A stretch of DNA of 38,180 nucleotides, from assembly GCA_008632985.1 (NCBI GenBank), contig QPGO01000368.1, forward strand, positions 1 through 38,180, read 5' to 3'. Positions 806 to 36,290 of this stretch are shown piece after piece (the stretch's first letter is position 1; each line of letters opens with the position of its first letter). A model generated the notes under the pieces. It saw only the letters and a list, made by a program, of their open reading frames with translations, made no database searches and had not been told where the DNA came from. Source of the DNA: Psammoneis japonica (taxonomy: Eukaryota). Position numbers and translations under genes: made by a program.

Positions 806-1349
806 CTTGGGACACAACAATGCACTGTGTAGGATGGAGAGTTCAGGACTCTCTTGAGGTTGTACAACACAACAGAGGATGATAAGAAGTAGTTTTGGGA
901 CAATAAGATACGCTAAAGATACGAATTGTGAGAAGATCTCACGAGGGATTGGAGATGACATTATGACCTAACGGTCGTGTGTGTCACTCCGATTACTATC
1001 GCTAGAAGACTCAACGGACATTTCTTCCGGAAGAAGAGATCCATGACCGGAAGCGTCATCCGTGAATCAGACTCGGTTGTTGACTCGTGACTGAGGATCG
1101 AGTCGTCGTCGCGTCGCTTGCGGATCTTTTTTCCAATCGCGCGAAAAATGCGATATGTTTAGCATATGAAAAACCTCGAAAGCGATACTTATTTTCCTAC
1201 ATTTCTTCGCGCTTTTTTGAAAGAAAATAATCACGACAAGAAAGGTCATGAGCTTCAAACATCATCACAGAAAAAAATATCAAAGATCTTTTGACCGACT
1301 GTTATGTTCTTGTTGTCAGACACAAGCATACAAGAAGCCATTTCTTGTG

Positions 1350-3107
1350 ATGGCTGACTCTACGATGCTCCTGTTAGCAGCTCTCTGCTCGATTTGCCTT
1401 GTCCATGCTTGGGGGTTTGCTGTCCCGAAATCTTTCGGAGCGGGCCCCCGTCAGCGAGTGCATTACGATGATCGAAACGCCTGGGGCTTGGCTTCCCCAA
1501 CGAAGACGTCTTCAACTCGCCGGCATGCCGAGCAAAAGGCTGCTGAGAAAAAGAAGAAGGGCCGAAAAATTCTCTTCATCACCACTGATATGATGAGATG
1601 GGATTCACTTGGCTACTATGGAGATCCTTACGCGAAGACTCCCAACATTGACAAGCTTGCTGCCGAAGGTATTCGCTACGACAATGCCCGTAATCCGAAT
1701 CCGCTGTGTATGCCCTGTCGGAACAGCATGATTACCGGACAGTACACGAGAACGCACGGAAGCTGGAACAACGGGATCCCTCTTCCTCATGATACCGAGA
1801 CCATTGCCCATGTGCTCCACGATAACGCCAAGTATCGCACGGCGATTATTGGTAAAGCACACTGGGAGCCCTTCTCAGCACCGACATCTCTAGAATCAGA
1901 ATTGGGAAACCTGAACCGCTATGGTCCGATTCGGGGGTTTGACTTTGCGAAGCTACATGCTCATGGGTCCGTTCCTTTCAACTCACACTACAGCATTTGG
2001 TTGCGTGAGAACTACCCGGAATATGTCGGTGAGTACTACCAGCTACTCAATCTAGCTGGTGATCATTCAGAAATGAATGTCAAGGGAGGGGGAGAGACAG
2101 GTGCTGTGTTCGTCAAGGACAACAAGATGCCCCGAGAAGTCTACCAAACTGACTGGACTACCGACAACACCATTCGGTACATTGACTCGTTAGATGATGA
2201 AGAAGACTGGTTTGTCTGGGCCTCTTACGGAGATCCGCATCACGCTTACGATCCACCCTCTTCTGAAGATTACATTTCCTGGAAAGATATTGAACCCTAC
2301 AAGGCTTTTGGCAAGTCAGAAGAAGAGCGGCTTGCGTGGCTCAAGGAAAAACCCTGGCACTGGGAACCTTGGTGGACTGGCGAGAAGTTTGTGTCCTTTG
2401 AAGCATGCGAGGGATTCTCCTACAGGGACAAACTCACCAGTGATCACATTCGGGAAATTCATCAAAAGATTTACACTTCAAACAAGCTCATCGACGATGG
2501 CGTTGGCAAGATTATTGACCACCTCGAGAAAAAGGGTGTCTTGGAAGATACCGACATCTTCTTTGTACCTGATCACGGCGGCATGGACGGTGCCTTTGGT
2601 TGTCTATTGATTGGTCCCAGCATGACGGATCACATTTGTAAATTGCCATTGATCTGGAAACCATCCAGCAGCACCAACACTCCTGCTTCAGTTGTGACAA
2701 AGCCAGTGAATTCGATTGACTTGGCACCCACGTGGTGCAGTATTGCGGGCATTGACGTGCCCGAGTGGATGGACGGCGAGCCGTTGCCAACTTCAGACAC
2801 GGAAGCCGAGGACCAAAACCGAGAATATTCATTTACTCAATACGAGAGTCACACACCGGATGCAAGTATTGTTATGAATAGCATGTTTGCAGACAACATC
2901 AAGTGTGTCGTGTACGAGCGTAGTAAAACCTACGACGGAACCGAAGGAGAATTGTATGATTTGAACGAGGATCCTGGCGAGTTGAAGAACCTGTGGAATG
3001 ACCCAGGTTATGCGGGAGTCAAGGCTGATATGATCGAGACGATTCGCAAGGACTTACTAGCGAGGCCCATGTTTCACAACAAGCCGATCCCTGGAGCTTT
3101 GATTTAG
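1350..3107 (+). CDS. Type I (formylglycine-dependent) sulfatase with N-terminal signal peptide and transit-like segment
   Basis: Intronless ORF with KILFITTD, the CMPCR (CxPxR) catalytic motif followed by xxxxTG, YRTAIIGKAH, PHH, DHG and ELYDLNEDPGELKNL. Likely start is MADSTMLLLAALCSICLVHA at 1350 (the ORF track starts at 1248). Confidence 0.9.
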   Translation: MADSTMLLLAALCSICLVHAWGFAVPKSFGAGPRQRVHYDDRNAWGLASPTKTSSTRRHAEQKAAEKKKKGRKILFITTDMMRWDSLGYYGDPYAKTPNIDKLAAEGIRYDNARNPNPLCMPCRNSMITGQYTRTHGSWNNGIPLPHDTETIAHVLHDNAKYRTAIIGKAHWEPFSAPTSLESELGNLNRYGPIRGFDFAKLHAHGSVPFNSHYSIWLRENYPEYVGEYYQLLNLAGDHSEMNVKGGGETGAVFVKDNKMPREVYQTDWTTDNTIRYIDSLDDEEDWFVWASYGDPHHAYDPPSSEDYISWKDIEPYKAFGKSEEERLAWLKEKPWHWEPWWTGEKFVSFEACEGFSYRDKLTSDHIREIHQKIYTSNKLIDDGVGKIIDHLEKKGVLEDTDIFFVPDHGGMDGAFGCLLIGPSMTDHICKLPLIWKPSSSTNTPASVVTKPVNSIDLAPTWCSIAGIDVPEWMDGEPLPTSDTEAEDQNREYSFTQYESHTPDASIVMNSMFADNIKCVVYERSKTYDGTEGELYDLNEDPGELKNLWNDPGYAGVKADMIETIRKDLLARPMFHNKPIPGALI

Positions 3108-5110
3108 CGCTTATGTCGTTGCAGCATTGGCAGAAACTGTCCGAAGAAACTGCAGTAGTCGAGTCTTTTAAAATTAGTTAACAGTTGTGGAGACTGGCTC
3201 TTGTAGTTTCTTACACAAAAGCAGGAATTTTAGAGGTCAAGAATCCCATCGAGTCATTTTAAAAGTGAAGTTCAATGACGTACGGTAGGAAAACGGCCCA
3301 TTCCAATGAAGATACCACCTGATCTTATCACCAAATGCTTTCCAGAAACCGTTGCTGAATGCGGATTTGAGTTGACAAATGAGCAATGTCATAAAGCAGA
3401 GTCGTTTTTTGCTTGTTGGTCATTCACTCGTAGCGTGGATGTAAGACATGCATTCACGCACCGGGCTCGTCGCTCTCCCCACTGTTTGGTCTTCAAATGA
3501 TGGCTTGAGTTGAATCATCCGGCATGAACCCTCCCCACTCGAAATTACATCAGTTCAACCTTGGAAAAGACTTGTGGCTGCATCAGGCAAGTGTGGCTGG
3601 CTCAAAGTGTTGTTGAAAAGCTGACAGGCTCATGCTGTCACCTGGGAAAATGGACCCAATGGAAAATCATCTTGAACTTGCTGGGAGGAGGGTTTGGATG
3701 TGAGCCTCACTTTCCTTGACTGTTGCCAGTCATGGAACAAGTGGGAGGCTTGATTGCCCAAACCAACTTGAAAAGCTCAGGCTTGCAATGTCACAGCTGA
3801 GCCCATGCATCCCAAGGCAGGAGCTCAGACACGCACTGCTCTCAGAGGAAGGCAAGTGGCTTCACCAAAGAAGAGCCTCTGTCTTCATTTGATGTGCTCA
3901 GCACTGCTGCCCATCAGGCATCTTGAAAGCAAATGTGCACAGTTTTGTTTGATGTGTGCATTTTGCATTCTATGACACCACACATTTGGACCTGGTCCAA
4001 CAAAAAATCAGGGGGCCCACCAGGGGAGGACGAATCTCCAATCCACACAAAAAGAGCTGGTCCAATGCAGAGCAACAACTGCAGCTAGAAACTGCTGGTG
4101 TGTGTGCTGCTGAGGGTGCATGATGCAGAGCCAGTGCCAGGCACCATCCACTTTGTGATGAACAAGGGCTGAGTGAAAACAACATGTCAGTCTCATTGCA
4201 GTGGCTTTGTCACCATTGCAGTCGACAGAGTGCTCACTTGTTCACAATGGAAATGCTCACGAAGTGTGCAGCATCAAAATGCACACAATGCAAGACATGC
4301 AATGATTTTGTGATGGTTGCAGTCAGTGGGGGGGGGGGGGGCTCAACTGCACTAAAAATGCTGAGGAGGGGTGCTGAAATGCTTGCGTGAACAAGGTTCA
4401 TTGACATCATCAGAGGTTCTACAGGCAACTCTGTGCAATGGCCAAACGATTGTCACAGGATGCTCAGGGCCTGACAGTGAATCTAAATCCATGTGTTGCA
4501 GGAGTGACCTCCACACTGAAATCTGTGAACACACATCTGCAGGGCAGTGGCTCAGCTGGAGTCTACGTCTTGCTCTCATGGTGCAAAAGCCCTTGTTTCT
4601 TTCAAACGGGCTTTCTGGTGTGCAAAAGCAAAAGGAGCTGCAGAGAATCTGATCTGGGGTTGCATCAACATGAGATGTGCTCAAGCATTTGCACACAATG
4701 GACAGGCTGATGTGCAAAAGACTTGACAGAAAAGAGGTGAGAGCCTGCATGAGGCAATTGGAAGCTCTGGAGGTTGAGATTGAAGTGGCAAATGATGAAC
4801 TCACACCACTGTGGAAAGAGACCAGTGGCACAGAGTGCAATGACTGGCATGCAGAGCAGCCCCCCAGTGCTCACATGTGATCAAATTGCAGATGGAGGGA
4901 TGCTGCTTGCAACCAGTGCATGCAGAAATGCTCGGCAATTCAGAAAATGAAAGAATTGAAGTTTTCAAGAGCCAGTCTGAAGGATCTTGTTTTGATGTCC
5001 AGGGAACTTGAGCTCAGAAAAAGAAAAAAGAAGAGCACAAAATGAAGCATGTCCAGACAGACAACCCTGTCCAAAGAGCTCATGTCAAGTGCAGCTGTGA
5101 TTGCCATGTT

Positions 5111-5592
5111 GACAATTCAAAGAACAAAGAGGCAACATTTGAAGTTCAGTTGAGCAGCTTCTTTTGCTGGGCCTTGACTGCAGCCAGAGGAAAAAGGCAA
5201 GTGACAAGGAGGTGAAAACTTTGCACTCAAAAGTGACAAACTTGCATGCAAATTGAATTTTGTGCTCTCCACTCAGCATGTGCCAAGTGTCACACCAGCA
5301 AAAGCCAGCTGCAAAGAACCTTGAGAAAGGAAGAAGCAAATGCCATGCATGGTGACAATTCAAAGAGCAAATGGCCAACATTTGAAAGTTCAGTTGAGCA
5401 GCTTCTTTTGGGCCTTGACTGCAGCCAGAGGAAAAAGGCAAGTGACAAGGAGGTGAAAACTTTGCACTCACAAGTGACAAACTTGCATGTGAAATTTAAT
5501 TTTTGTGCTCTCCACTCTGCATGTGCCAAGTGGCACACCAGCAAAAGCCAGCTGCAAAGAACCTTGAGAAAGGAAGAAGTAAATGCCATGCA
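5111..5592. repeat. Tandem duplication, ~243 bp unit x2
   Basis: gacaattcaaag...gaaaggaagaag(c/t)aaatgccatgcat starts at 5111 and again at 5354. Confidence 0.9.
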
Positions 5593-8500
5593 TTGCACAC
5601 AAAACAGGAAATTAAAAAGCCTTGGTGACAGGCTTGGTGATGCACTTGAAGACAGCATTAAAAAGGCTGTCGTGCATTCTGCAGCATTGCTGGAGAGAGC
5701 AGCCAGGTTGAGAGGTGTGTGCCCAACAGCACCAGCAGTCAAGTGCAAGCTCCTTTGGAAAAAAGTGCACAATGCTGAAGACAAGCAACATGGGAGAAAA
5801 GACAAGAAACAAGACAAGATGAAACTCAGCAAGGGAGACATCAAAGAGGGGGAGTTGCAAAGCATTTTGAAGCACTTCTTGAAAAACCCAAACCCAAAAG
5901 GTCCATGACCAAAGATTGAGTTTCTTTTGAAAAAATGAACAAAAAGAGCACAAAAGCAATGGCACTGTGACAAAAATCACTTTCCATGCTGGAGTGCCTT
6001 AAGATGGGCACCTGCAGCCTGCAAATGATCCCATCATCTGAACATTTGGTTTTTGCAGCTGTTGTTGGCCCTGGACACCCAGCAGAAAGGCACAAAAACA
6101 TGCCTTGACATGCCAGCACTCAGCTCCCACAAGATTGGCAGCACAAGCTCTCTGCTCAAACAGAGAACAGTGCTTCACATGCTCTTGTTGGTGGCTGCAT
6201 GCCAGATTTCAAAATGATGTGTCTCCAGAAAATTGCAGCCAAAATGATGCCTTGCCCAAGATTGAGGAACTCTGTCTCTTTTCAATGCCTTTTGCAGAGA
6301 CTTTCTGTCATTTTGTCATTGATGTGCCACACTCATGTCCCTGTCCAGACAACCAAACACAAAACCCACTGCGAATCTCTTCAGCACACTTCTGCAAAAG
6401 CTGTGTGAACTCTGGGCAACATCTTTGGAGCTGCAGTCACAAAGTCAAGTTGCTGCACAGAAGCTCCCCATCCAAACACCCCACATGAAGTGCATCTTCA
6501 CATGGCAGTTTCACAACTCATGGCAACATGCCACATGCCACTGTCGCACCCATTTGCAGCAGCCTCTTGTGGCTCATTCACCAACAAAGTGATGATGATG
6601 ACACACCAGTGTCTCCCAAAACACAGCTCTGGTGCCTCCTCCTCTCAGCAGCCCCAAAGCATTGAATGAGTTCCTGGACACATCAATGACATGACCAGTT
6701 TGAACCCTGGAGCCACACTGATGGAGAGTTCCTTGCAGGAGCAAGGTTGGAAGTGTGCTGAAAGACACCGCACCAATGCTGCTGGCAAAAGAACATGGTG
6801 TGACATGTTGAGCACCATCTCCCAGTGCTTTTAGCAAGTTTTCATTTTTTCTTGCAACAACAGCTGCACCAGCAGTTGTGCATGGACCAGCACATTGTTG
6901 GCTTCAAGAAAGAGGCAACACAGGCCAAGTCACTTCCAAATCTGTGCCTGTGCTTTACAATTGCTGGGTGAGCAGGCACCAGCACTCAAGCCTTTGTGGG
7001 CTCTGTGGCCTTCCAAGCTTTTTGATGTTCTGCTGTGACTTGTCATCCCATGCCACCCCTCATCATCTCAGTGCTTGCAATCATTTCACAAACTGGCAGC
7101 CAGCACTGCTCCTGCCCCTGCCAAACACCACATGTTGCTCTTGGCATGTGACCTCTCCAGATCAAAAAAACATGGTGGACACTCATGTGACCAAGCTGAC
7201 TGCAAACATCAGGGAGATGATGAGAGCAGGATCTGATGGCCAAGCAAGGAGGGAAGAAGCTCAAGATGGTGGTGGCCCTGGGAGATGCTGAGTGAGGGTC
7301 AAAACTTGTTCCTGAAGGAGAAAGACAGAGGCAGCTCTGTCAAAGCCAAGGAGACAGATGAAGCAGCATGAGCCAAGCTGTTCCAGGACTTCATCCACAG
7401 GGAGGGTTGTCAGCCCCATTCAGCACACAACCTGGGCACAACTCTTCCTTTTCTTTTCTGCTTGCTTTTGCCATTTCTGCTCTGCCTTTGGCTTTTTTCC
7501 AACTCACACCAGCAAACAACTCTTCAGGAGATGTTTGAGAAGGAGGAGCATCTTTGCACCATGAAGGCATGGGATGGAGGAGCTGTTGCCAGATGAGACA
7601 TGCCACCCAGCCTCATGAGCAGGCATGGAAAGTTGGCCTGGGGGAGCTCCTGGACAATCCAGTGTGCCCAACCAAGGAGACCAAAAGGACTGCCTTATGC
7701 AGCAGGCAGGTTGGCGGCACATGGATGACAGGTGGGGAACACTCCTTTGCACAAAGCACACCTTCAAAAAATCCTTTTGTTTGGCCCAAAAGCAGCCCTG
7801 GGTGCCCAAGCAGACCAGCGTCAGGCAGGTCTGCTGCTGCAGCACCTGCCACAAAGAACAGCAGGAAGCACTCACTTTTCAGCAGCCCAGCAATGTGTTG
7901 TTGTTTGAGTGCTTGGCAACTTTAGAAAGGAAGGACAAAGTTTGGCACAGCTGATTGGAGCAGGTGTGGCATTGGCCAAAGAGAACAGTGAGCACACCAC
8001 AAAAAAAAGAGCACCAAAAGTGGCAAAACCAACTTTTTTCAGGGACAGGGAGGGAATGCACACACAGCCCACAGTTTGGAGTCACTTCACAAAGCTGCAC
8101 ACAGGATCCACATTGTGATGTTTTGTCCTCAAGGGATGGTGAAACCTTCTGTTGGGGTTGAGATGCCATGTCATCAGCCAGCTTCTGGGGTGCTGCTTCA
8201 CTCATTTTGTGCTTTGCCAGTGGCCATGTCAGCCACCAGCTGCTGCTTTGTTTGCTGTGGTGCCACATTGGCAGCAGCCAGCCAGCAGCTGCTTTGTTTT
8301 GTGCAACTGGTGGGAACAGAGAGTGTCACACCAGGCTGGGAAATGAGCACTTTGTGCAATGCTTGGGGCTGATTAAGAAGGTGTACACAACTTGCCACCT
8401 TGACAAGAAAAGAAATGACTCCATGATCTGGAAAGTGCTTTCTTGACACAAACTGCTCATTGCCAATGCAAGGGCTGTGGTCGTGGCAGCCACAATGACA

Positions 8501-9108
8501 AGGCAGGCATCTCACCACACTGTGACACTTTTTTCTTCAGGAAGAACTCTGCCAGTGCCAAGCAACTCAGTTGCTCCACAAAGCAACCTGGAGCTCTTGT
8601 GTGGCTTCATCCCTGTCACAAGCCAGACACTTTTCTGCAGATCACCTCAGCACAGAAAAAACTCATGGACAGTCTGCCAGACATTTGTTGATGCCAACCG
8701 TGTGATTCTTTGCCGCTTGAGAGACACGTGGGGTGATGGAATGCAGCATCACTGACACTTTGTCATGCTTGGTCTTCAGTGTTTTGAGAGGGAGATGTGC
8801 TGGTTGCACTGCTGCTGTGAGTTTGTCAGTTTTGATGATGTTGTTTGTGTGCTGAGAGTCAAGGGAAGGTGAGCAGCTGGGAAAGCTTTCCACTTCAATT
8901 GGTTTGTTTAATTGAGATTTCTTTTTCTTTTTGCTTGGAGCAACAAGCCATGCTTTGGCAAGGTCAGCTTCAGCCCATTGTTCACCACTTGGGTGATGCA
9001 TGCAAAAATGTCAGGTGCAATGGATCTCTTAAGATGTCAATGTTTTTTGGCAGCAATGTTGTCACAGTCATCAATTTTTAGAGTGTGTCAGTTGAGAAAG
9101 ACCTGAGT

Positions 9109-9624
9109 GCAAGCAGATGATGAGGGCATCAGGGCAAGCCATCAAAATGAGACATGCAGTTTTCATGGGAGCATTGCAAAAGAAGCTTGCTCTTGGCAAG
9201 AGAACAAGATTCATTTTACAAGGACTTCTGAAGTTTGTGAGTCCACAGACAACATCAAGCCAGCAGAAGTGTCAGAAGAGGACATCAAAGACAGAAGCTT
9301 GTGCACTTCTAAAGGCACAAAGGAGAAAAGAAAACTCGACAAAAGAAGTTGAATGCAGGAGCTCATTGCTGTCAGTGGATGAAGCCAGCACAAGCAGCAG
9401 ATGAGGAGCAGGGTGCCAGGGCAGGCCATCAAATGTGAGATGCAGTCTCCAAGGGGCCATTGCAAAAGAAACAGTTTTGCAAGCCAACAAGATGCACTTC
9501 TTTACAATGACATCTGAGGTTTGTGAGTCAACAGACAACATCAAGCCAGCAAAAGTGTCAGAAGAGGAGGTCAAAGACAGAAGCTTTGGCACTTCTAAAG
9601 GCACCAAAGAAGAGAAGAAAACTC
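9109..9624. repeat. Tandem duplication, ~286 bp unit x2
   Basis: ttgtgagtc(c/a)acagacaacatcaagccagca...acttctaaaggcac at 9235 and 9521. Confidence 0.85.
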
Positions 9625-9935
9625 CCAAAAATGATTTCAGTGGAGGACTCATCATCACCAGATGAAGCCGGGCACACTTGCTTCTTGCCTTTTGCACAAA
9701 CAAAGAAGCTTCAGGTCATGACCAGCTCCTCCCATTTCCACATGAAGTCTTTGGCAATTTGCTCTGCAAAGGGTGGTCAACTTTGGGGGCTGCTTGGCAA
9801 CTTCGGGAGGGGCTTGAGCCACTTGTTGGCTCCAAAGCCAACTCACAGCTCCACATCCCCAAGACAGCACTGCTGCATTTTTGCATGGAATCTGCTCAGG
9901 GCAGAGGAAGAAAAAGATGGAAATCAGAGGGGCTG

Positions 9936-10710
9936 GTCATAAAAGCTGCAGGGTGCAGAAAGCTGTGGGGTGCAGGCTTCATAAAGAAAGCTGCACACAG
10001 AAGCTTTGGGGCATGGGAGCAAAGCTGCAGGGTGCAGCTTTCACAAAGAATGCCGTGGAGTGCAAAAAGCTGCACATCACAGGTTTGGCTCAAAAGCTGC
10101 AGGTTTTGCACAAAAGACATGGGGTGCTGCAAGCTGTGGGTCACAGGTCTTGCACATGCACAAAAGCTGTGGGGCACACAAAGTTGCAAGGCACAGGTTT
10201 TGCTCACAAGCTGGGTGCAGCATGCACAAAGCTGTGTTGCGCAGGTTTTGCACAAAGCTGCAGGGTGCAGAAAGCTGTGGTGTGCAGGTTTCACAAAGAA
10301 AGCAGCGGGGTGTGCAAAGCTGCCAGGTGCAGGTTTTGCACAAAAGCTGCAGGATGCAGAAAGCTGTGGTGTGCAAGTTTCATAAAGAAAGCTGCAGGGG
10401 GTGTGCAAAGCTGCAGGGCACCAGTTTTGCACAAAAGCTGCAGGAAAGTTACACGGTGCAGGTTGCAGGTTTTGCTCAAAAGATGCAGGGCACACAAAGC
10501 TGTGGGGTGCAGGTTTTGCACAAAAGCTGCAGGGTGCACAAAGCTGCAGGTTTTGCACAAAAGCTGCACAGTGCAAACAGCCATGGGGTGCGGGCTTTGC
10601 ACAAAAGCTGAAGGGTGCAGCACAAAGCTGCCAGGTGCAGGTTTTGCTCACAACCTGCAGGGTGTGCAAAGCTGTGGGGATTAGGTTTTGCACAAAAGCT
10701 GCAGGGCACT
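9936..10710. repeat. Degenerate minisatellite built from aaagc-NN-NN-ggg-NN-NN-g(g)ttt units (NN = TG or CA)
   Basis: Many variants of aaaagctgcagggtgcagaaagctgtggggtgcaggttttgcac. Confidence 0.9.
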
Positions 10711-10896
10711 GCTGCAATTGAAGAAGCTCCAAGGTGGCAATTCTTTGCTCTGGTCTTTGCCCTTGCAGGTCTAAATGTTGTGCAGGAAGCTTTGCTGTGC
10801 ACATCTTGGAGATTTGAAAGCTTGCAAGCTGCCAGTCTTCCGCATGTTGTTTTCACACATCTTCCAGCATGCCCAGTGGCACAGTTTCAAGAGAAG

Positions 10897-11466
10897 TGTC
10901 AGATGCCACACCCAGATTGCTTGCACTCCAGCTGTCATTTGTTGACAGGACATTGTTGTCAAAAGATCACATGAGAAGAGCAGGACACACAACTCCAACG
11001 GTCAAGCAGAGGTGTCAACAGAACAGCTTCAGACCTCTGTCAGATGCCACACCGAGATGGCTTGCACTCTGGCCATCATTTGTTGACAGGGCACTTTTGT
11101 CAAAAGATCACATGAGAAGAGCAGGACACACCACAACTCCAACTGTTAAGTGGAGGTGTTGACAAAACAGCTCAAGACCTCTGTCAGATGCCACACCCAG
11201 ACTGCTCTTGCACTTCAGCCATCATTTGTTGACAGGACATTCTTGTCTAAAAATCACATGAGAAGAGCATGACACACAACTCCAACTGTCAAGTGGAGGC
11301 ATTGACAGAACAGCTTCAGACCTCTGTCAGATGCCACACCCAGACTGCTTGCACTCCAGCCATCATTTGTTGACAGGACATTCTTGTCAAAAGATCACAT
11401 GAGAAGAGCAGGACACACAACTCCAACTGTCAAGTGGAGGCATTGACAGAACAGCTTCACACCTCT
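10897..11466. repeat. Tandem repeat, ~142 bp unit x4
   Basis: tgtcagatgccacac... starts at 10897, 11038, 11182 and 11325. Confidence 0.92.
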
Positions 11467-13517
11467 CAAATGCTGTGCCCCAGCAGCTTGGATTGTTTGC
11501 TTGCCATTGCTTGTTGACAGCATGTTGTTGGAAGTGTGCCTGGGAAGAGTGTGGGGTGCATGTCCAAGAAGTTCCAGGTGGAGGTTTCAAGGGGAGGGCC
11601 CTTGAGGCAGCAAAGGAGGGTCTGAATTTTGACTGCAGGTTTTGAAAGTTGCAGATTTTGGAATCATGATGTTGTGAGCAGCTTGAGACTTTGACCACTG
11701 CAGCTTTCAGATGGTGGAGCAACCTGGCCAGGTGACTTGACAAATTGTGGTTTGCCACAGGAACAAGGGCACTCAGCAACTGTGCTGTTTGACAACAGGT
11801 GATTTGTCTCAAGCAAGGCAGCCAGGCAAGCCTGAGTCACTGCTGTTTTTTTCTCTTCTTGCCATCTCTTGATTTGTGTCGCCACAACCCTTCTCAAAGT
11901 TGTCTTGATGATTGACAAAAACCAGCTCCTTGAGCACGACAAATGCAGCAACATCAAAAAACTTGTTTGGCAATGCCAGATGGTGTGAGAGACATCTGCA
12001 GCAGCTGCACATCCTCTCTCAGCTGCTCTCAACTTTGTTGCAGTCCGAGAATGTTCAGGTGGCATTGACAAGGAGACAACAAAAAAGGCTCTCCAGCACA
12101 CCCACCTCAGAAGCCCCAACTGTCAACTCCAGCTGCTCCCAGGGAAAAGACTCTCATTGGCTCAAATCAAGATTTTGTTTGAACAGGTTTGTGTCTGCGA
12201 GTGATGAGGCATTTTGGCCTGCTGACTTTGGAGAACAGCTGGAACAAAAGTGGACATGCGTGCACAGAAAACAAAGGAAGAGTTGAAGGAGGCCAATCAG
12301 GAGGGGCTCATTCTGGAGGCCAATTGCAGCAATGGGGGTGGCAATCAAGCAAAAAAGAAGGAATCAGAGGGTTGGAACACAAGAAAGGACCAGACAGGGC
12401 AAAAATTGGGAAAACGGATTTCAGGAGCAGAGATTGAGCAAGGACACTGACAAGTTCAATGAAGTTTGGTCAAAGGAGCCCTGGGTGCACATGGACAAGA
12501 CAGAAGAGTCCCAAGAAAATGATGGCAAACAGTTGCAAGCAGGCAACAATGTCAAGGATGACATGATCAAAAACCATGGATTTGTGGCTCCCGGAGACAC
12601 AACAACAAGCAGCCATTTAAATTGACATTTGGCGACAATTTGCAAAAATGAAAATGCAAAATCAACAGCAGACTGGGTGGATTGAAAAGGAAATGAAAAA
12701 ACTGTGGATGTGTTGGAGGGCACATAAAAAATGCAACTCAGCACCAGAAACATTCATGCAGCGGAACCTGCACATTTTCATCGAAATGCCCGAATTGTCA
12801 GCGGGGCACCCAAATTGTCAAAACAAAGAATGCCAGTGTGGCTCCCCCATTGAATGCAATGGAACCCCAAATGCAATGAACCCAAGATCTGCGCACAAAT
12901 TGAAAGATGAACCAACATTGATCAAGGCAATTGCCCCCTTTCGGGCAAATTGTTTCTCCCTCTGATGTCTTTTGTGCGGCCAGCCAGCGCTCCTGCGGCC
13001 AAACTCAAAGCTGGGCGTTGCATGCACTGCTCCAAGAAGCAGATCTGTTTTGGGTTACAAAGCCAGGCAAGTCAAACTCCAGCTTGTTCTCTCCTCCTTT
13101 GTGTGTGCTTCTTGTTCGTTTTTCAAAAGTGGCGAGTGTGTGCTCCTCATGTCTCTGCTTTTCCTCCCCAGCTGATCATTTTTTCAGAAGTTTTCAAATT
13201 TTTGACCCAAACAAGGGAGTTAGTTGGTGGCTCTTGTCAATCAGAACTCCAAAGTCCTTCTGCAAATCCCAAAGAGTTGTCTTGTCTCCTGGAGCTGTGG
13301 AGCGCATCTCACCCTGATCGTGTTGGTGGTGGTTTGTCTCGGAAGTGGAGCGGCCCACTTGGACAGCGAGAGACAGCCGTCCCATTCACCGCCCCGCCCC
13401 CACTCCCGGCTTGGGAGGTCCCCCGGCCCGAGCCCCGCGAGACGCGAGAGCGAGGAGGAGAGTCCTGTCTTCTGCCTGCCTGGAGGGAGCAGGAGTCTGC
13501 AAGCAAACGACAGCACC

Positions 13518-15383
13518 ATGAGAAAGAACGACAATGCAAGGAGTAAAATACAAATAAAGATGGCTCTGTTGGTTGTGTGCCCTCTTTTTCCCCCTGTCGG
13601 TAGCATATGGCCATCGCTCGAGCCTGCTGGTTCCTTCCCTCCCATCATCTCTGCCTCGGCTTTTGTGCTTCCAATGAACGGGGATGTCGTGGCAACAAGA
13701 ACGCAGATTCAAAAGAACCACAAGTTCAGACGTTGTCCTCGACAGCAACAACCATCAAGAGTTCTTGTTGGGAATGGTGATAATTTACTTCCAAGCGAAT
13801 CGACAAAGTTCGTGCACACAGAAGACGATGCTCCGGAAGAACAGGAACGCTACTGGGGAGAGGAGGACGAGGCTCGAATTGCTCAAGACGTGATGAAGAT
13901 GCTACTACCTATGAATGAGACTCTAGATGACCCCACTGATCTACCAGCAAACAACATCACTCTGGACAATATAGAAATGCTGACCGAATCTTCCAACATT
14001 GCTTATTTTTATCTCCAGAACGAGATTGGGTTGTCGGAAACTGCAATGTGGAAGATTACCTTTGAATCGGGATCTGTTTTGGGAATGACTGCAACCAACT
14101 TAAGACATAAGGTAGAGCTTCTGCGAAGGACTATGGACTTGACGGATGAAGATATCCGCACGATAATTGAAAAGCTGCCCGCCATTCTTCATTTGAGTGC
14201 CGACAAGAACATCGCTCCTACGATTCTATTCTATGTGCGTGCGCTGGACATGAGCAAGGAGGACTTGAGAACAATTGTTGTGCAGTTTCCAGCTGTTCTC
14301 ACCTATTCCATGGCTAACCTCAAGAATAAGCTGAACTTCTTTACAAAGTTGTTGCTTTTCACGCCAGATGAATTGCGGACGCTCGTCCTGAACGAACCAA
14401 AGCTTCTTACTGCGGGGGTTTCTACTGGCCTCATGCCACGTATCCAGTTCCTTCTCAGAGAGATGCAGATTCCTGTGGAAAAGATTCGAATCATAGTGCA
14501 AAAGAATCCAAGGATACTGCTTTACAGCTTGGACGAGAACTTGAGACCCAAGCTCATTTTTTATTTTATCTTGACGTTGCACATGGAACCGCACCACGTT
14601 CAACGGGTGCTGGTCAGATATCCTCAAATTATTGACTACAATCTCGAAAACCACATTCTTCCAATCACACGATACTTTGTTTCCTTCGTCGAGTTCAGTC
14701 CTCTTGAAGTACGCAATATTCTCCTTAAATTTCCACGGCTGGTGACCCACTCGCTCAACAAGATTAAACACGTGGTTGGATATCTACGATACGAACTGGG
14801 AATGAAACCAGAGCAAATCAAGAGAGTCCTTTACCAAGCACCACAAATCATCGGCCTCAATACGGACGTCAATCTGAAGAGCAAGGTCGAATTCTTGCGT
14901 GATGCATTAGATTTGACAGACGAAGAGCTTCGACGGACTTTGTCCGGCATGCCCACCCTCCTTATATGTGGAATTGATTCCAACCTGCATCCAAAAATTG
15001 AATATCTAAAGGAGAAGTTTGACGGCGATCTAAGTGAGCTACGAGACGCAGTTTTGACTTTGCCAACGCTGTTGGGGTATTCACTCGACAAACGCATTCG
15101 GCCACGAATGGAGCAGTTGCTTGAAGCCGGCTGTAATCCAAGTGGAATCACCATTGGGATTCCCATGAAGGAAGAAAAGTTCGACACGTGGCTTAGAAAG
15201 AGAAAGCTCCGTCTGGAAAGTAATCCGGGCTTTGACAACGCCAAGAAGAAGAAGAAGCACCCGTTTGACAATCGCTCTGGATCCATTACACCTCCACTTA
15301 TTGAGGAAAAGAGACCGACAGGAAATGAGCGAGAAGGCCGAGTTGTGAATTGGACACGGAAGGTACGGAGCCCAACCGATTAG
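13518..15383 (+). CDS. mTERF-repeat protein, probably plastid-targeted
   Basis: Tandem mTERF repeats (P.iL.yS.e.nl.Pk..f). Start at 13518 (MRKND) or 13560 (MALLVV), followed by an ISASAFVLP motif matching the diatom ASAF plastid cleavage consensus. Confidence 0.88.
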   Translation: MRKNDNARSKIQIKMALLVVCPLFPPVGSIWPSLEPAGSFPPIISASAFVLPMNGDVVATRTQIQKNHKFRRCPRQQQPSRVLVGNGDNLLPSESTKFVHTEDDAPEEQERYWGEEDEARIAQDVMKMLLPMNETLDDPTDLPANNITLDNIEMLTESSNIAYFYLQNEIGLSETAMWKITFESGSVLGMTATNLRHKVELLRRTMDLTDEDIRTIIEKLPAILHLSADKNIAPTILFYVRALDMSKEDLRTIVVQFPAVLTYSMANLKNKLNFFTKLLLFTPDELRTLVLNEPKLLTAGVSTGLMPRIQFLLREMQIPVEKIRIIVQKNPRILLYSLDENLRPKLIFYFILTLHMEPHHVQRVLVRYPQIIDYNLENHILPITRYFVSFVEFSPLEVRNILLKFPRLVTHSLNKIKHVVGYLRYELGMKPEQIKRVLYQAPQIIGLNTDVNLKSKVEFLRDALDLTDEELRRTLSGMPTLLICGIDSNLHPKIEYLKEKFDGDLSELRDAVLTLPTLLGYSLDKRIRPRMEQLLEAGCNPSGITIGIPMKEEKFDTWLRKRKLRLESNPGFDNAKKKKKHPFDNRSGSITPPLIEEKRPTGNEREGRVVNWTRKVRSPTD

Positions 15384-29759: not shown

Positions 29760-31470
29760 CATTGACAGTTGCTTTTGTCTTGTTTTGCACCCTCAATCAT
29801 GCACTGTGTGTGACACAGCCCTTTTTTCCGTTGAGATGATGGATGCGGTGATTTTGGGCTTTTTGCGCACTCGCTCGCTTTCAAACCAGCGCAAACAACT
29901 CACTCAACACCCTTGTTTCTACGCCTGACAAGGACAATCACATGATGCAAGCCCAGATTGTTGATGAATTGTCAAAATTAAAAGTCATTGTCTGATGATT
30001 GCAACCTTCAGTTGTGAATGCCTTGCACAGTCATTTGCAGCACCAGAGGAGCCTGGCAGCTCTCTTCTTGGAGCCCTCTCTTGTGCTTCTGAAGTGACCA
30101 AGGAACTCACTTGATGCCAATGGCATGCCCTTCATTTTCCTGCCATTGAACTTCCAACTTCTTCCTGAGACAAAGTCCCTTTCTTGTTGTCACTCCAGAC
30201 AGAACCACACAAACCCAGCTGTCTGTGTGGTCAAAGTTGTTGTTGGACAACAACCAGGCTCTCAATTTTGCACCCCCTGGAGCTTGTGCACAGTTGCTGC
30301 GTTGTTGCACAAAACTGGGAACTGGGTCAATTGCTTCCTCTGACTGATTCTTGGTTTTTTTTGTGAATGAAACCCATCACAGGGACAGGAAAGTTGACAA
30401 CACAGCATGTCTCTCTCCTTGGGGCCACACAAGAAAACAGCTCTCATCCTCCTGCCTTTTCCTCATGCCTCAAGACAATCGACTCAACTTGCAAAACACA
30501 GGCTGACCTCACCCAATGACCATCAATCTTCATCAACTCCAAATCATCCAAAGAAACACATTCCTTCAGCTCAACTCCCTGAAAAAAGCCAGCAGTGCCA
30601 CTGGCCTCCTTTTTCTCCACATGTTCTCATCGAGGTTCATTGTCACAGGGCGGCCATGCAAAGCTTCAGAAGTGAGCCCACATGCCTTGATTCATTTCCG
30701 GCTCATTTGACGTGAGCATCTGGACAAACTGCAAACAAAATGTCCTTGGACAGTTCATCTTGAAAATCCACATGCTTGCATGACCTGGTGTTCCATTTTT
30801 TCCACTTGAGGTTCTTGCTTGCTCAGAGGACAATGGCGTGGGTTGGAGGTGACTGTGCAAGAGATTTTGAGCATGTTCCCTCTAGCACCTTCTTGAAAAT
30901 GCCGTTGTTGACTGCATTCCTGTCAAGACCAGTGGCAACAGCGCAGGTTGCATTGCTTGGGATGTCACTTTCCATGAGGAAAAGATTGCTGGCAGATCAA
31001 GGTTTTCAACTTTCAGATGTTTCCACAAAAGTCAGTCAGTGCAAAAATGATGAAAATCCAGAGGAGAATGGCTGGCGCCTGTCAGGACTCATCTGATCAC
31101 AATGAACAATGAAAACACCACCAAATCATGTCTTCAGCTTTGTCAGTTCATCAAGAGTTGGGCAACAAAGCACAAAGAAGAGATGACAAAAGTGCAAGAC
31201 AGAGCGTGTTGCTGATGGTGCATTGTGCAACATTGTGCACTCTCCACCTGCTGCACCCAACCATTGTGGGTCACTGTCAAGTTGATTGGAGAGGTGTGTG
31301 ATGAAGATGACACTGATGAAACATTTCATGAAACTTGCGCAGATGTCGAGAAGCCATGATTTGCTGGTGGCTGGCGAGTGTCTCCAAATGAAACAAAAGA
31401 GCACCGCGGACATCCTTCTCATTGCTTGACATTTTGACAATTGCAATGTCATTGTGTTGTTTGAAGCATC
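29760..31470 (-). mobile_element. Decayed Helitron-like element with PIF1 helicase remnants (30107-30990)
   Basis: Frameshifted minus-strand fragments in the correct order: DIPSNATCAVATGLDRNAVNNGIF, LLKLC/HGRPV...EASGT, QFPVLCNNAATVHKLQG (motif V) and WVCVVLSGVTTRKGLCLRKKL (motif VI, YVxLSRV). The block is TpA-depleted. Confidence 0.8.
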
Positions 31471-31681
31471 TGATGTTTCATCTTAAATGTTTGTAAATAA
31501 AGACAACGAGACACAGCCGTTCAGCGAAGCGTCCAATCTGGACTTCAGATTGTGACCCGCAAAAAGAAATGACCGACGAACCATGCAGGATCATCGCATC
31601 GATCGACGTACTGACCGTGCGTCTTTCCGTCATCATTATTCTGTCTGTCCGTGCCCTGTGTGTTATTTGCCTCCGACATTT

Positions 31682-33549: not shown

Positions 33550-34779
33550 TTAGTTCGAATTCAATATACGACGCGACTGGAGTCGCCGTTGATATAATTT
33601 AACATACGCCACCCGCAGCAACACGATTATCTGTTCATATGTGAGGAAAGTGAAGGCTGCCGTCAAGACTGTTTGAAGCAGTTTTGCTTCCAATCCTCGA
33701 AATAAACCAGCAACACCCCCTTGTTTGAAGAGTTTGCGAAAACAATCCCATGTACCATTGTAAACCATGAGAGTTCTATCTTTGGATTCTGCGTCCTGCT
33801 CTTTATGCTTTTGCTGTATTCTCAGCAGGACTTGAGCAAGCTGTAGTGGATAAGTCGCAACCGTGGCTGCAGCCTTTGCAGTGGCTCCCAGAAGGAATGC
33901 TTCGACAGGAGTGAGCCCCAACACTGTTGCTTGCTGATTTTGTCTCGGTGTTATGCGTCCCTGAAGGCTTCGAGAGATACGGTTGGCTTTCAATTGCTCG
34001 TAAAGAAAAAATTGAATTACAGGATTGGACACGAGCAAGAGGGAGGCCCATGTTCCATTCCACAAGCGAGATTTTCCTTCAACTCTTAGAATGGAATGTA
34101 CTTCTTGAAACAAGGAAGGTGTCTTGGACTCGCCTTGAACAAAACGTAAGTTCGCCACCCACAACGGATTGGTAATTAGAACATTGGCAATACCGGCTAG
34201 ACAGGAAGCGAACAACGACCTCGAGAGTGACGGGGTTTTCTTGCCTATCGAACTGGCGACGGGGAAGAGGTATCGCTTTGCCACAGCGTGCGCGTAAAAG
34301 AAAACGAAGTTGGATGCTGCCATGGTAGTAATTACAGGTGACACCCCTCTGTACAGTTCACCTTGATTTTTTAATCCAACAAGACAAGATATCAACTCAC
34401 TCCTGTTTGCTGCCGCGGACCTGTCTTCAATTGACTGCGAATGCGACGACATGGACCACGAAGCCTCGTCTTCATCGGCGGCCTCGCTTCGTTTGCGATC
34501 TTTCTGTTCCGCAAATTGAACCCAAGAATCGTCTTTTTGCTGAACACAATCCAATTTATTGTTAGATTCGTCATCACTTGATGATTCGATGTCGTCTGAA
34601 TGCTTCTCTGGTTGTTGTGCTGCTGCCGCCGACTGCATTTCGATTCGCGCCCGTTCCAACGGGAAGAACAATAACAGCGCCAAGGCCGATCCCAAGGAGC
34701 CTCCAACTGCATGAAAAATGGGTGGAAGGGCTACAGGCGCATCGCTGGGGGTTGCATATGATGCGGTTCTTGCCGCCAT
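33550..34779 (-). CDS. Mitochondrial carrier family protein, peroxisomal PMP34/SLC25A17-like
   Basis: Three carrier repeats (FPLERAR, NPLWVAN, YPLQLAQ) plus SNFVFFY, LLLVSNPVIQF and KLLQTVLTAAFTFLTYE typical of PMP34. True start is most likely MAART at 34779, not 35472. Confidence 0.88.
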   Translation of the reverse strand: MAARTASYATPSDAPVALPPIFHAVGGSLGSALALLLFFPLERARIEMQSAAAAQQPEKHSDDIESSSDDESNNKLDCVQQKDDSWVQFAEQKDRKRSEAADEDEASWSMSSHSQSIEDRSAAANRSELISCLVGLKNQGELYRGVSPVITTMAASNFVFFYAHAVAKRYLFPVASSIGKKTPSLSRSLFASCLAGIANVLITNPLWVANLRFVQGESKTPSLFQEVHSILRVEGKSRLWNGTWASLLLVSNPVIQFFLYEQLKANRISRSLQGRITPRQNQQATVLGLTPVEAFLLGATAKAAATVATYPLQLAQVLLRIQQKHKEQDAESKDRTLMVYNGTWDCFRKLFKQGGVAGLFRGLEAKLLQTVLTAAFTFLTYEQIIVLLRVAYVKLYQRRLQSRRILNSN

Positions 34780-34920
34780 GGCGTCCGATGTTACTTCTAC
34801 AAGCACATGTAACCTTACAGTAAAAGAGAAATGAGCAGTTCGGAATTTGCGGCGAGCGCGCGCTTCATGCGAAAAGCTCGGGCGCCGCGGGGGGGGGGCG
34901 GCCGCCCGTCCGTCCCGAAA

Positions 34921-36290
34921 CCAAGCATTTTGATTTCCAGGAGGAACACAACGCTCAAGTCTCGTTCCGACATCAGCGCTGATGGTTGGTGAGCTGTTTG
35001 GGACATGCCAAGTGCAAGCCACTTTCCAACTTTGCAGGCAGAGAGTAGTTTGAAGTTGTTGCCCCACAACCACAACCTTCGTTGGCAGCTCTGGGTTTGT
35101 GCAACATTGCTTTTCACACCAGCAGGATTCATCACTGCCTCCAGCAATGATTTGGTTGCACCGTTGCCGACATGGCATGAGGGAGCTGTCTGCATGAGCT
35201 TCTTTGCTTGTCACATGAACTTTCCTGCAGCATGCAAACAAGAAAAAATTCAGTGTTTGGAGAGATGTGGCACCCCACCTTTGCTGTGATCCCACTGTTG
35301 CTGAGAGCAGATTCATCATTTTGTGCATTGAACAGGTGGAGGGCAGTGTCTGTCCTTTTCTCAAGACTGCTGGCATGCATGTGAAGCAGCAACACAAGTT
35401 GTGGGCTTGGCAAGAAAGCCCCTCATGATGAGAGCTCACTTTTTCCAATCCTGTCAAACTGGAAAAGAGCAAAAGACGGTCAATGTCAACAAAGACTTTG
35501 GGTTGGTCAATTTGGCACTGGATTGCTCAGATCAGGCTTGCCAGAATGCCACCTTTTGCTGCATTTCTTCTGTGGTGTGATCCTTCATCTTCTTTGTTGT
35601 TCTTGCCACACGTCTCTTGCAGACCATGCACTTTTTGCAACAAGCCCTCCCTTTGTCTCGATCCATGCCCAAAAGTTCACGCAACAGACCATCCGTCTTT
35701 TGTGCAAGGACATTCAAGGCTGCTTGGTGCATTTGCAACTTCTGTCAACAGCTGGACTCAGCCCACACAAGCCCTGCATGTGTGGAGACCCTCGCCATGC
35801 ATGCCCTGAGGGATGCCACTGATTGAATGAGATGTGCCGGCTCCACTCAAGGCAGCAGCCTCACAAGCAATGGCACCCAAACAAGAGCTTTCCATCAAGT
35901 TTTCCTGCACTCTTCCAATCCATCATGGAGTGAGCTTTCTGATCAAGGCATTGGTTGAGTGGCTCTCCCCATGGCATGGATGGGTGCTTGGCATTGCATT
36001 CCATGCAAAAGGCAGCCAAAGTCGCCGACTTCTCATGAACAGACTTTGCTTCTTCACTGTTTGCACACTTCCACAGTGCTCAGCAACACAAGCAATCTCC
36101 AATGCAAAGTGATGGGGTAACTTCACCTCCTCTTCTGCATCCACAACAGATGGATCCTCCTTTCCAAATTGGCGTGCTTCAAGGACTCGCTTTGCATCAT
36201 TTGCGCGGATGCCACCAAGTGTCAAGACAGACTGAGTGGCTGCAGACACTGTGGTTGATTGGGTTTGGGCGTCCATGCTGACAGTTGATG
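34921..36290. other. Third TpA-depleted decayed block (element of unknown type)
   Basis: Manual tally of 2 TA versus about 21 CG in 1370 bp; no recognisable intact gene. Confidence 0.75.

Follow-up and report, generated by a model that had tools for sequence, protein, structure and literature searches.

The locus analysed here raises the question of why long stretches of DNA lying between ordinary genes should be almost devoid of two dinucleotides, TA and CG. The window (the whole stretch analysed, 38,180 nucleotides of Psammoneis japonica contig QPGO01000368.1) represents a diatom-like nuclear genome and contains three non-coding stretches in which nearly every TA and CG step is now TG or CA. 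Features given below without a sign carry no strand assignment. Block 1 (3547..13220; 9.7 kb, non-coding) had TA and CG nearly erased and TG/CA almost doubled, with 35 TA observed against 359 expected from host flanking-DNA rates, and 50 CG against 546. Block 2 (29980..31483; 1.5 kb) contained 1 TA and 16 CG (55.8 and 84.9 expected from host rates), and block 3 (35047..36117; 1.07 kb), upstream of a mitochondrial-carrier gene, contained 0 TA and 12 CG (39.7 and 60.4 expected). Frequencies per kb of TA, CG, TG and CA were 37.1, 56.5, 68.0 and 73.8 in host DNA, 3.6, 5.2, 103.1 and 119.9 in block 1, 0.7, 10.6, 107.1 and 110.4 in block 2, and 0, 11.2, 109.3 and 118.7 in block 3; Poisson log10 P values for the blocks against host rates ranged from -13.5 to -165. 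CG loss was less complete than TA loss in blocks 2 and 3, TC was not depleted in these two (75.8 and 68.2 per kb; host 68.8), and CpG observed/expected (o/e) in genes was near 1.

Over the 9.7 kb of block 1, o/e was 0.00-0.13 for TA and about 1.4-2.5 for TG/CA. The longest TA-free gap measured 1370 bp in the blocks vs 183 bp in host parts, and the longest CG-free gap 946 bp vs 124 bp. When 500-bp windows were scored for erasure, 110 in this window were positive and merged into three intervals; none of 7,214 such windows from 757 kb of unrelated metagenome loci, scored as a control, was positive. The first-pass annotation had described a TA/CG-poor block at 3541-13260, which was borne out on recounting (37 TA, 50 CG, 1000 TG, 1163 CA), as was the lack of either dinucleotide at 7021-7620 (0 TA, 0 CG); its figure of 27 TA in 600 bp of the neighbouring sulfatase gene lay inside the recomputed range of 12-28 per 600-bp window. 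The recurrence that it had placed at 29760-31470 and 34921-36290 was also found, with coordinates that proved slightly wide (sharp edges at ~29980/31484 and 35047/36118).

The left edge of block 1 was abrupt (between 3442 and 3546 for TA, at 3540 for CG). Its left neighbour, a host sulfatase gene (1248..3107, + strand; Pfam Sulfatase, E 2.2e-35), had normal TA and CG, with 64 TA in the ORF (34.4 per kb). On the right, a margin at 12592..13543 was still TA-poor (4 TA), had regained CG (32 CG), showed a weak TG/CA excess and reached the 5' end of a host mTERF gene (13518..15383, + strand; Pfam mTERF, E 1.5e-51; first in-frame ATGs at 13518 and 13560); part of this margin may be just a GC-rich promoter. 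TA and CG were back to normal from about 13544 onward.

The lost dinucleotides were accounted for by the gained ones. TA+CG per kb fell from 93.6 in host DNA to 8.8, 11.3 and 11.2 in blocks 1, 2 and 3, and TG+CA rose from 141.8 to 223.0, 217.5 and 228.0, a loss of 82-85 per kb that matches a gain of 76-86 per kb. The share of YpR steps was 0.229-0.239 in the blocks (0.232 in block 1) vs 0.235 in the host. Since loss equalled gain and the YpR total was unchanged, the balance is one of transitions at TA and CG only. GC per 500 bp (0.44-0.53) was close to the host value of about 0.48, and purine/pyrimidine 5-mer spectra of blocks and host differed by JS x1000 values of 1.0-3.8, with split-half values of 1.3-2.7 as sampling noise. 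TG and CA were randomly interleaved (runs-test z 1.02, -0.16 and 0.54 in blocks 1, 2 and 3; heterogeneity p 0.31), a pattern consistent with each strand being hit independently.

Tandem copies inside block 1 were aligned and compared column by column. A 44-bp array (9918..10709; 13 in-register copies used) gave 10 TG/CA columns, some of which kept a residual CG or TA copy; a 141-143-bp array (10873..11602; 4 copies aligned) gave 5 TG/CA swap columns; a 243-bp duplication (5105..5593; 93% identity) gave 1 swap column plus 2 in which TA faces TG/CA; and a 286-bp duplication (9112..9652; 80% identity) gave 1 swap column. TG and CA were thus both present in 17 dinucleotide columns, and control double-transition swaps in the same copies occupied 3 (GT/AC), 1 (AG/GA) and 2 (CT/TC) columns. 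TA was paired with TG/CA in 5 columns and CG with TG/CA in 4; in pairwise alignments CA/TG made up 6 of 18 adjacent double differences.

Contigs of a public sequencing run (X1) contained 79% of the 31-mers sampled from the block, 83 of 148 aligned contigs, with word depths of about 29-56, were alike to >=99%, and the left junction of block 1 was spanned by a single contig of 2,666 nt. The sequence thereby has the raw-read support on which the first-pass annotation had made its reading depend, from a run that is perhaps the source sample of the window and so is not independent. X1 and the window differed at 327 positions in all, and 36 of the 40 listed differences fell in block 1, 10 of them making up 5 CA<->TG swaps. 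From window to X1, the listed differences included TA>CA at 4564, TA>TG at 6957 and CG>TG at 4566 and 4607, and in the reverse direction (window CA or TG, X1 TA or CG) 4603 and 7570; TA opposite CA/TG accounted for 3 of the 36 listed block 1 differences, all unpolarised. The divergent contigs may represent alleles, paralogues or a different strain.

Together, the swaps in the tandem copies and in X1 point to mutation later than duplication and not to inherited composition. With YpR steps kept and loss equal to gain, they agree with the first-pass annotation, which had attributed the loss of TA to T:A>C:G transitions yielding TG/CA. The ancestral base at each TG/CA site is not known and CpG alone could yield every TG/CA swap, so that direct support for TA becoming TG or CA comes from few sites (5 tandem columns and 3 X1 sites).

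Loss of TA and loss of CG differed in their dependence on flanking bases, an observation that is new here. TA survival was 0.007 at RTAY (0.7%; 1 site), 0.048 at RTAR, 0.069 at YTAY and 0.261 (26%) at YTAR (chi-square p 1e-8), and CG survival was flat at 0.09-0.14 (p 0.66). The earlier proposal of a TA process distinct from CpG decay is upheld by this difference. The residual-TA flank pattern, together with an excess of RCAR/YTGY, can also be produced by ordinary dipyrimidine C>T change (YCA>YTA) followed by fast resolution of the new TA; therefore the flank pattern by itself does not give the specificity of an enzyme. An RTAY-first, YTAR-last rule would offer a concrete specificity against which candidate deaminases or dioxygenases could be tested.

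Block origin was examined at the level of proteins, RNAs and repeats. None of 119 ORFs or 23 read-through frames gave a Pfam match or a domain of a TE or viral protein; a relaxed search (E<=2) returned just two chance-level matches in 10 frames; and neither coding periodicity nor an Rfam family was found in the blocks. Searches for LTRs, LTR-like direct repeats and inverted repeats of >=40 nt returned internal tandem arrays only, with no tandem repeats in block 2, and blocks 1, 2 and 3 showed no similarity to one another, also in purine/pyrimidine space. The description of the blocks as repeat-targeted or as TEs, made in the first-pass annotation, was not sustained: within the window there was no sign of a TE or repeat family, with no terminal repeats, no TE proteins and no block a duplicate of another. 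A foreign (viral or transposon) target likewise drew no Pfam match, and the purine/pyrimidine spectrum was host-like; heavy decay could conceal a foreign origin. The blocks bore no mark of being foreign, repeated or silenced, and their foreign or silenced status is presumed. If their non-repeat, non-viral nature holds, the trigger would be chromatin state or something other than RIP-like sequence duplication.

The first-pass annotation knew of no eukaryotic pathway of this kind, a statement now outdated, as integrated viral DNA in Bigelowiella natans is reported to undergo TpA>TpG/CpA hypermutation (Mettrop et al., 2026; bioRxiv 10.64898/2026.01.13.699255). According to the available text of that preprint, two integrated viral regions acquired 231 de novo mutations, 230 of them A>G or T>C; the GC-biased ones were confined to TpA, with a rate about 1000-fold that of the background; 124 TpA-poor, CpA+TpG-rich clusters were present in the genome; and an ADAT2 candidate was proposed (10.64898/2026.01.13.699255). 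The present blocks resemble these regions, as described there, in apparent both-strand TpA>TpG and TpA>CpA, in their discreteness beside normal host DNA, in long-term TpA depletion with CpA/TpG gain (clusters >=3 kb) and in high local diversity. TpA was down with CpA+TpG up to match, as in clusters of the B. natans type; blocks 2 and 3, each <3 kb, fall short of their size of >=3 kb. The hosts differ, B. natans being a chlorarachniophyte (Rhizaria) and the present host a diatom. In the available text, NCLDV and virophage inserts can be recognised as the B. natans targets, and RT/DDE domains are over-represented among low-TpA CDS; such remnants were not detectable, and such domains not found, in the present blocks. 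The B. natans regions also retain TpA (3.3% and 9.2% of dinucleotides; rho 0.45 in the NCLDV region, against o/e of about 0.00-0.10 here), that text reports no CpG loss alongside the TpA process, and the B. natans rate comes from measurement in MA lines, whereas the present blocks are known by their footprint (10.64898/2026.01.13.699255). This is the one description of TpA-directed hypermutation so far; a saturated diatom-like footprint would extend the process beyond one alga and show it capable of reaching completion, and genetically tractable diatom species make a hunt for the enzyme and targeting signal realistic.

Other known systems were compared in the same way. A diatom DNMT5a, which serves CG methylation, is required for DNA methylation and TE repression, according to the available part of one report (PMC9998398). 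Decay of 5mC at CpG, as in vertebrates and plants, is strand-symmetric CpG>TpG/CpA change in silent DNA with genes keeping their CpG, and both CpG depletion and TpG/CpA gain were present in the blocks; it cannot remove TpA, which the blocks have lost. Fungal RIP is similar as a region-specific, sharp-edged transition hypermutation that wrecks its target. It changes C to T mainly at CpA, makes TpA, lowers GC and requires duplicated sequence; the blocks are its opposite in losing TpA, gaining CpA/TpG and leaving GC unchanged. RIP was rejected, with TpA down about 10-fold in block 1 and >50-fold in block 2 and absent from block 3, CpA enriched, and the blocks not mutual duplicates. Animal ADAR/APOBEC editing of viruses and retroelements is likewise deaminase hypermutation serving as defence, with a 5' U preference in ADAR; these enzymes act on RNA or single-stranded DNA and leave strand-coordinated clusters, none of which was seen in the blocks, and APOBEC yields C>T, not A>G. 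Dinoflagellate 5hmU is a TpA-preferring modification of the SAR lineage, enriched on repeats and linked to silencing; it is a modification and not a fixed mutation, and the available text does not mention TpA erosion (PMC11572971).

The composition of the blocks is very probably the product of mutational erasure of both dinucleotides, and this erasure was likely locally targeted and carried out at the DNA level, whatever the enzyme. Two separate context-specific transition processes, each with TG/CA as end product, would have brought the blocks near saturation. For CpG>TpG/CpA, the simplest candidate would be 5-methylcytosine deamination in presumably methylated silent DNA. For TpA>TpG/CpA, local targeted hypermutation of the kind measured in B. 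natans mutation-accumulation lines may have been at work, and on balance we favour a process of the same kind. It would hit either strand of the palindromic TpA, lack a long-range strand preference, and act most efficiently at R-T-A-Y and least at Y-T-A-R. The likeliest chemistry would be enzymatic deamination of the adenine of TpA to inosine, read as G, perhaps by an ADAT2/TadA-like polynucleotide deaminase recruited by a putative signal to silent or foreign chromatin; this chemistry is put forward tentatively, at somewhat less than an even chance. It is distinctly unlikely that a single chromatin-targeted DNA-editing defence across SAR (Rhizaria, diatoms and perhaps alveolates) removes both self-complementary YpR steps. 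One machinery, for which a dual A/C ADAT2/3-type deaminase or a 5-methylpyrimidine dioxygenase is a candidate, would then target CpG and TpA at the 5-methylpyrimidine or at its partner purine. Silenced DNA of any sort, beyond repeats and viruses, would become TG/CA-only, lacking TAA/TAG, TATA and CpG.

Thymine rather than adenine may have been the modified base: a TET/JBP-type dioxygenase would oxidise the T of TpA (perhaps also the 5mC of CpG) to 5hmU/5fU, and 5fU mispaired with G would give T>C, hence TpA>CpA on one strand and TpG on the other. Such an enzyme class, acting on purine-followed 5-methylpyrimidines, would explain exactly the two self-complementary YpR losses, and the symmetric, strand-random outcome fits as well as under deamination. 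In the available texts, 5hmU replaces T preferentially in TA and TC in the dinoflagellate C. cohnii, its loci in A. carterae are concentrated at repeats and arise through a TET/JBP homologue (PMC11572971), and 5-formyluracil in DNA mainly gives A:T>G:C through mispairing with G (PMC7051996). The retention of TC in blocks 2 and 3 is unlike this TA+TC preference, and the differences between TA and CG loss in flank dependence and completeness speak against one enzyme for both. We know of no TET/JBP gene or 5hmU in diatoms, and thymine chemistry is on the whole rather unlikely. Inherited or selected composition would mean that the blocks, as foreign elements or functional non-coding RNAs or DNA, had always avoided TA and CG, for example by the kind of UpA/CpG avoidance seen in RNA viruses and in cytoplasmic RNAs, or by anti-nuclease word avoidance. 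Sharp block edges are what inserted DNA would give, and the available text of one report documents selection-driven CpG and UpA suppression in RNA viruses and mRNAs (PMC3829696). This reading is nonetheless very unlikely: TG/CA compensates the loss exactly with YpR steps conserved, the purine/pyrimidine spectrum is the host's, neither a coding signal nor an Rfam family was found, and TG/CA swaps, which must cross a 'forbidden' TA or CG, were 6-17 times commoner than control swaps. The depletion also goes about 10-fold beyond any case of selection known to us.

Editing at the RNA level, in which retroelement transcripts would have been hyper-edited (ADAR-like A>I with 5' U preference), reverse-transcribed and inserted already mutated, is highly improbable. 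ADARs are known as metazoan enzymes. One-strand editing should favour TG or CA, and the two were equally common and randomly interleaved; tandem copies within a block differ by swaps, which places changes after duplication; and the blocks yielded neither a reverse transcriptase or integrase nor an LTR. ADAR-type hyper-editing fixed by retrotransposition was therefore rejected, there being no strand-coordinated clusters and no RT/LTR, although ADAR does prefer U 5' of the edited A (10.64898/2026.01.13.699255, available text). A sequencing or assembly artefact, such as systematic miscalls at modified bases, would accord with three isolated N in the window and with the many block sites at which X1 differs. 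It is barely credible given the exact block 31-mers in X1 (share 0.79), the contig identities and word depths noted above, the single contig across the left junction, and X1 variant contigs that were just as TA-poor at listed sites (X1 being perhaps the source sample and not independent).

Erasure of this kind also affects annotation, hiding where block DNA came from and, through the shortage of TAA/TAG, giving rise to long spurious ORFs. An ORF of 640 aa on the minus strand (33550-35472), with a Mito_carr match at residues 521-619, runs into block 3; its coding periodicity ends near 34950, and it stays open inside the block only because TAA/TAG are absent there.

The window has a GC content of ~48% and consists mostly of densely packed host genes, rich throughout in TA and CG. 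In host DNA, that is, outside the three non-coding erased blocks, TA, CG, TG and CA were present at 37.1, 56.5, 68.0 and 73.8 per kb, respectively, versus 3.6, 5.2, 103.1 and 119.9 per kb in block 1 (3547-13220), 0.7, 10.6, 107.1 and 110.4 per kb in block 2 (29980-31483), and 0, 11.2, 109.3 and 118.7 per kb in block 3 (35047-36117). Block 1 retained 35 TA and 50 CG (359 and 546 expected from host rates), block 2 retained 1 and 16 (56 and 85 expected), and block 3 retained 0 and 12 (40 and 60 expected), with Poisson log10 P values for the deficits across blocks of -13.5 to -165. The 37 TA that the first-pass annotation had counted in 3541-13260, and its statement that 7021-7620 is devoid of both TA and CG, were reproduced exactly on recount, and the sulfatase gene was TA-rich as it had described (12-28 TA per 600 bp). 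The longest TA-free gap was 1,370 bp in the blocks and 183 bp in host DNA. Depletion criteria were passed by 110 windows here versus 0 of 7,214 from unrelated metagenome DNA (757 kb), a composition control made up of 80 loci, nearly all of 38-52% identity and apparently bacterial. These loci were rejected as orthologues for synteny for being distant or apparently bacterial, the only two close ones being too short. The block edges were abrupt, the left one of block 1 falling within ~100 bp.

The combined drop of TA and CG in the blocks (82-85 per kb) was approximately balanced by the gain of TG and CA (76-86 per kb). The share of pyrimidine-purine (YpR) steps was constant (0.229-0.239 in the blocks, 0.235 in host DNA), GC content was the same as in the host, and purine/pyrimidine 5-mer spectra of the blocks were indistinguishable from those of host DNA. 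The blocks thus have the appearance of ordinary DNA whose TA and CG steps were turned into TG or CA by transitions alone. A mutational double erasure of TA and CG is, in our judgment, highly probable, and the best explanation is a TpA-specific T:A>C:G process layered over CpG decay. Loss of CpG is what CG methylation would be expected to cause. The first-pass annotation had proposed these same two layers together with targeting to repeats or transposable elements (TEs); the proposal is partly supported, this bookkeeping and the tandem-copy swaps described below favouring the layers, with the targeting unsupported. As a separate compositional feature, the + strand was purine-rich in block 1 (A 0.289, G 0.255) and pyrimidine-rich in blocks 2 and 3 (T 0.27, C 0.25-0.26).

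Tandem arrays within block 1 (unit sizes 44 bp, 141-143 bp, 243 bp and 286 bp) and comparison with run X1, a public sequencing run with contigs matching block 1, indicate that the block composition arose by mutation and was not inherited. In aligned tandem copies, 17 columns had TG in some copies and CA in others, versus 3, 1 and 2 columns for control double-transition swaps; leftover TA was found opposite TG or CA in 5 columns and leftover CG in 4. Among 40 of the 327 differences between the window and run X1, 36 were in block 1, including 5 CA<->TG swaps that account for 10 changes. The differences listed also comprised window TA>CA at 4564, TA>TG at 6957 and CG>TG at 4566 and 4607; at 4603 and 7570 the change ran the opposite way. 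A TG/CA swap arises when an ancestral TA or CG is resolved independently in two copies or when one copy passes through TA or CG, which points to a fast resolution of TA and CG into TG or CA. Contigs of run X1 carried 79% of sampled block 1 31-mers, and one contig spanned the left junction of block 1; the sequence thus has read backing, although this backing is not independent if, as may be the case, X1 is the source sample of the assembly. On the stretch, 83 of 148 X1 contigs were at least 99% alike and 65 only 90-99% alike, and some block 1 contigs diverged by 2.4-3.7% (8 in 340 nt; 12 in 327 nt). In the flank at 2501-3546, 3 differences in ~1 kb were among those listed, so that, as judged from part of the difference table, diversity in block 1 seems much above that of the flank.

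The losses of TA and CG are best read as two processes and not one, judging by their flank dependence and completeness. With purine (R) and pyrimidine (Y) flanks, TA survival in the blocks was 0.7% for R-TA-Y (a single site remaining), 4.8% for R-TA-R, 6.9% for Y-TA-Y and 26% for Y-TA-R (chi-square p 1e-8), and TTAA made up 9 of 36 residual TA sites versus 3.9% of TA sites in the host. CG survival was flat over the same flank classes (9-14%, p 0.66), and in blocks 2 and 3 TA was more fully lost than CG. The products were also skewed, the gain of R-CA-R and Y-TG-Y being ~5 times that of R-TG-R and Y-CA-Y. This skew could reflect a preference for a pyrimidine 3' of the mutated A, equivalent to a purine 5' of the mutated T, or else continuing ordinary C>T change at dipyrimidines that turns YCA into YTA, which the TA process in turn resolves. 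TG and CA were interleaved at random (runs-test z about -0.6 to 1.0), which argues against long-range strand-coordinated action, and the runs test found no strand-coordinated clusters in the blocks. In block 1, TGCA was present at 18.4 and CATG at 8.9 per kb, where paired YpR steps would be expected to yield both equally; the GC step stood at 79.5 versus 58.8 per kb in the host and the AT step at 45.7 versus 61.3 per kb. These skews fit the RCAR/YTGY product bias, with part of the inflation coming from the tandem arrays.

A process of this kind has been described already, very recently, in a 2026 preprint on Bigelowiella natans, and the first-pass remark that no such eukaryotic pathway was known is superseded in that respect. 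In the available text of that report (10.64898/2026.01.13.699255), 231 of 302 nuclear point mutations in mutation-accumulation lines fell in integrated giant-virus and virophage regions, 230 of these 231 were A>G or T>C, and the GC-biased mutations were all on TpA at a rate ~1000-fold over background. The same text describes 124 TpA-poor, CpA- and TpG-rich clusters in the genome and an enrichment of RT and DDE domains in low-TpA coding sequences, and proposes an ADAT2-like adenine deaminase, citing amphioxus and trypanosome ADAT2 as editors of DNA. The footprint is the same as in the window (TpA loss with CpA and TpG gain), and the B. natans viral region is likewise reported to have high local diversity. 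The window differs in lineage, in that CpG is also lost and no viral or TE remnant was detected, and in extent, TA o/e being ~0.00-0.10 in the blocks versus 0.45 in the B. natans viral region. New from the window are the saturation of TA loss, combined with CpG decay, in a genome of diatom-like affinity, and the flanking-base rule, by which RTAY is hit far harder than YTAR and which sets the TA process apart from that acting on CG.

Thymine oxidation could alternatively underlie the TA step: according to the portions of the sources available, dinoflagellate 5hmU favours TA and TC and is a mark of repeats (PMC11572971), and 5-formyluracil yields mainly A:T>G:C (PMC7051996). TC, however, was undepleted in blocks 2 and 3. 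Fungal RIP makes TpA and so runs in the direction opposite to that of the blocks. As to the CpG layer, CG methylation in a diatom is described in PMC9998398 as dependent on DNMT5a and repressive of TEs. The literature searched contained no account of diatom TpA erosion; PMC4504042 was rejected as one, the match being to 'Tpase'.

A TE or viral origin of the blocks was unsupported by Pfam, periodicity, repeat and similarity searches. Pfam gave no match on 119 stop-to-stop ORFs of at least 60 aa or on 23 frames with TGA read through as X, and just two matches, both chance-level, at E<=2 on 10 frames. Coding periodicity of the sort able to outlast transitions was absent (block 1 R/Y period-3 <=3.2 versus 4-16 in host genes). 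Neither blastn nor comparison in purine/pyrimidine space, where transitions are invisible, revealed similarity between blocks, only the internal tandem arrays; the remaining matches were at or under the reversed-sequence decoy (up to 91 bits). No inverted repeats of at least 40 nt, terminal direct repeats, Rfam families or tRNA genes were found in the blocks. No RNA data set was listed for the block, and run X2, a run of unrecorded kind, was placed on the flanking genes and not on the block; neither result is evidence on silencing.

The blocks are intergenic; next to the mTERF gene and the carrier gene they extend as far as the 5' end. The flanking ORFs (sulfatase, mTERF, EF-hand phosphatase, DnaJ, class-III aminotransferase, DTW-domain protein and mitochondrial carrier) are ordinary eukaryotic genes. 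Best identity in the protein collection for the aminotransferase was 72%; its nearest named relatives were two pennate diatoms, Gedaniella (69%) and Thalassionema (62%), and then further diatoms and oomycetes at about 53%. The host is not Bigelowiella. TAA and TAG were near-absent from the blocks (2.0 and 0.8 versus 7.9 and 9.3 per kb in the host), which results in long spurious ORFs such as 9896-10804 and 33550-35472 (both - strand). The latter, the mitochondrial-carrier 'ORF', runs several hundred codons into block 3, and its coding periodicity ends near 34950. Two gene-proximal margins were TA-free and very CG-rich, 13300-13543 (18 CG in ~240 bp) and 34822-35046 (20 CG in 224 bp). They may be ordinary, naturally TA-poor GC-rich promoters, or else TA erasure may extend there past CG erasure; as proof of the latter they were dropped because a clear TG/CA excess was absent. 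Strongly coding sequence at 1-500 had just 4 TA (o/e 0.14) and a normal level of CG (o/e 1.12), probably owing to codon usage of the gene there. Isolated N were present at 36950, 37096 and 37668 within otherwise normal host sequence.
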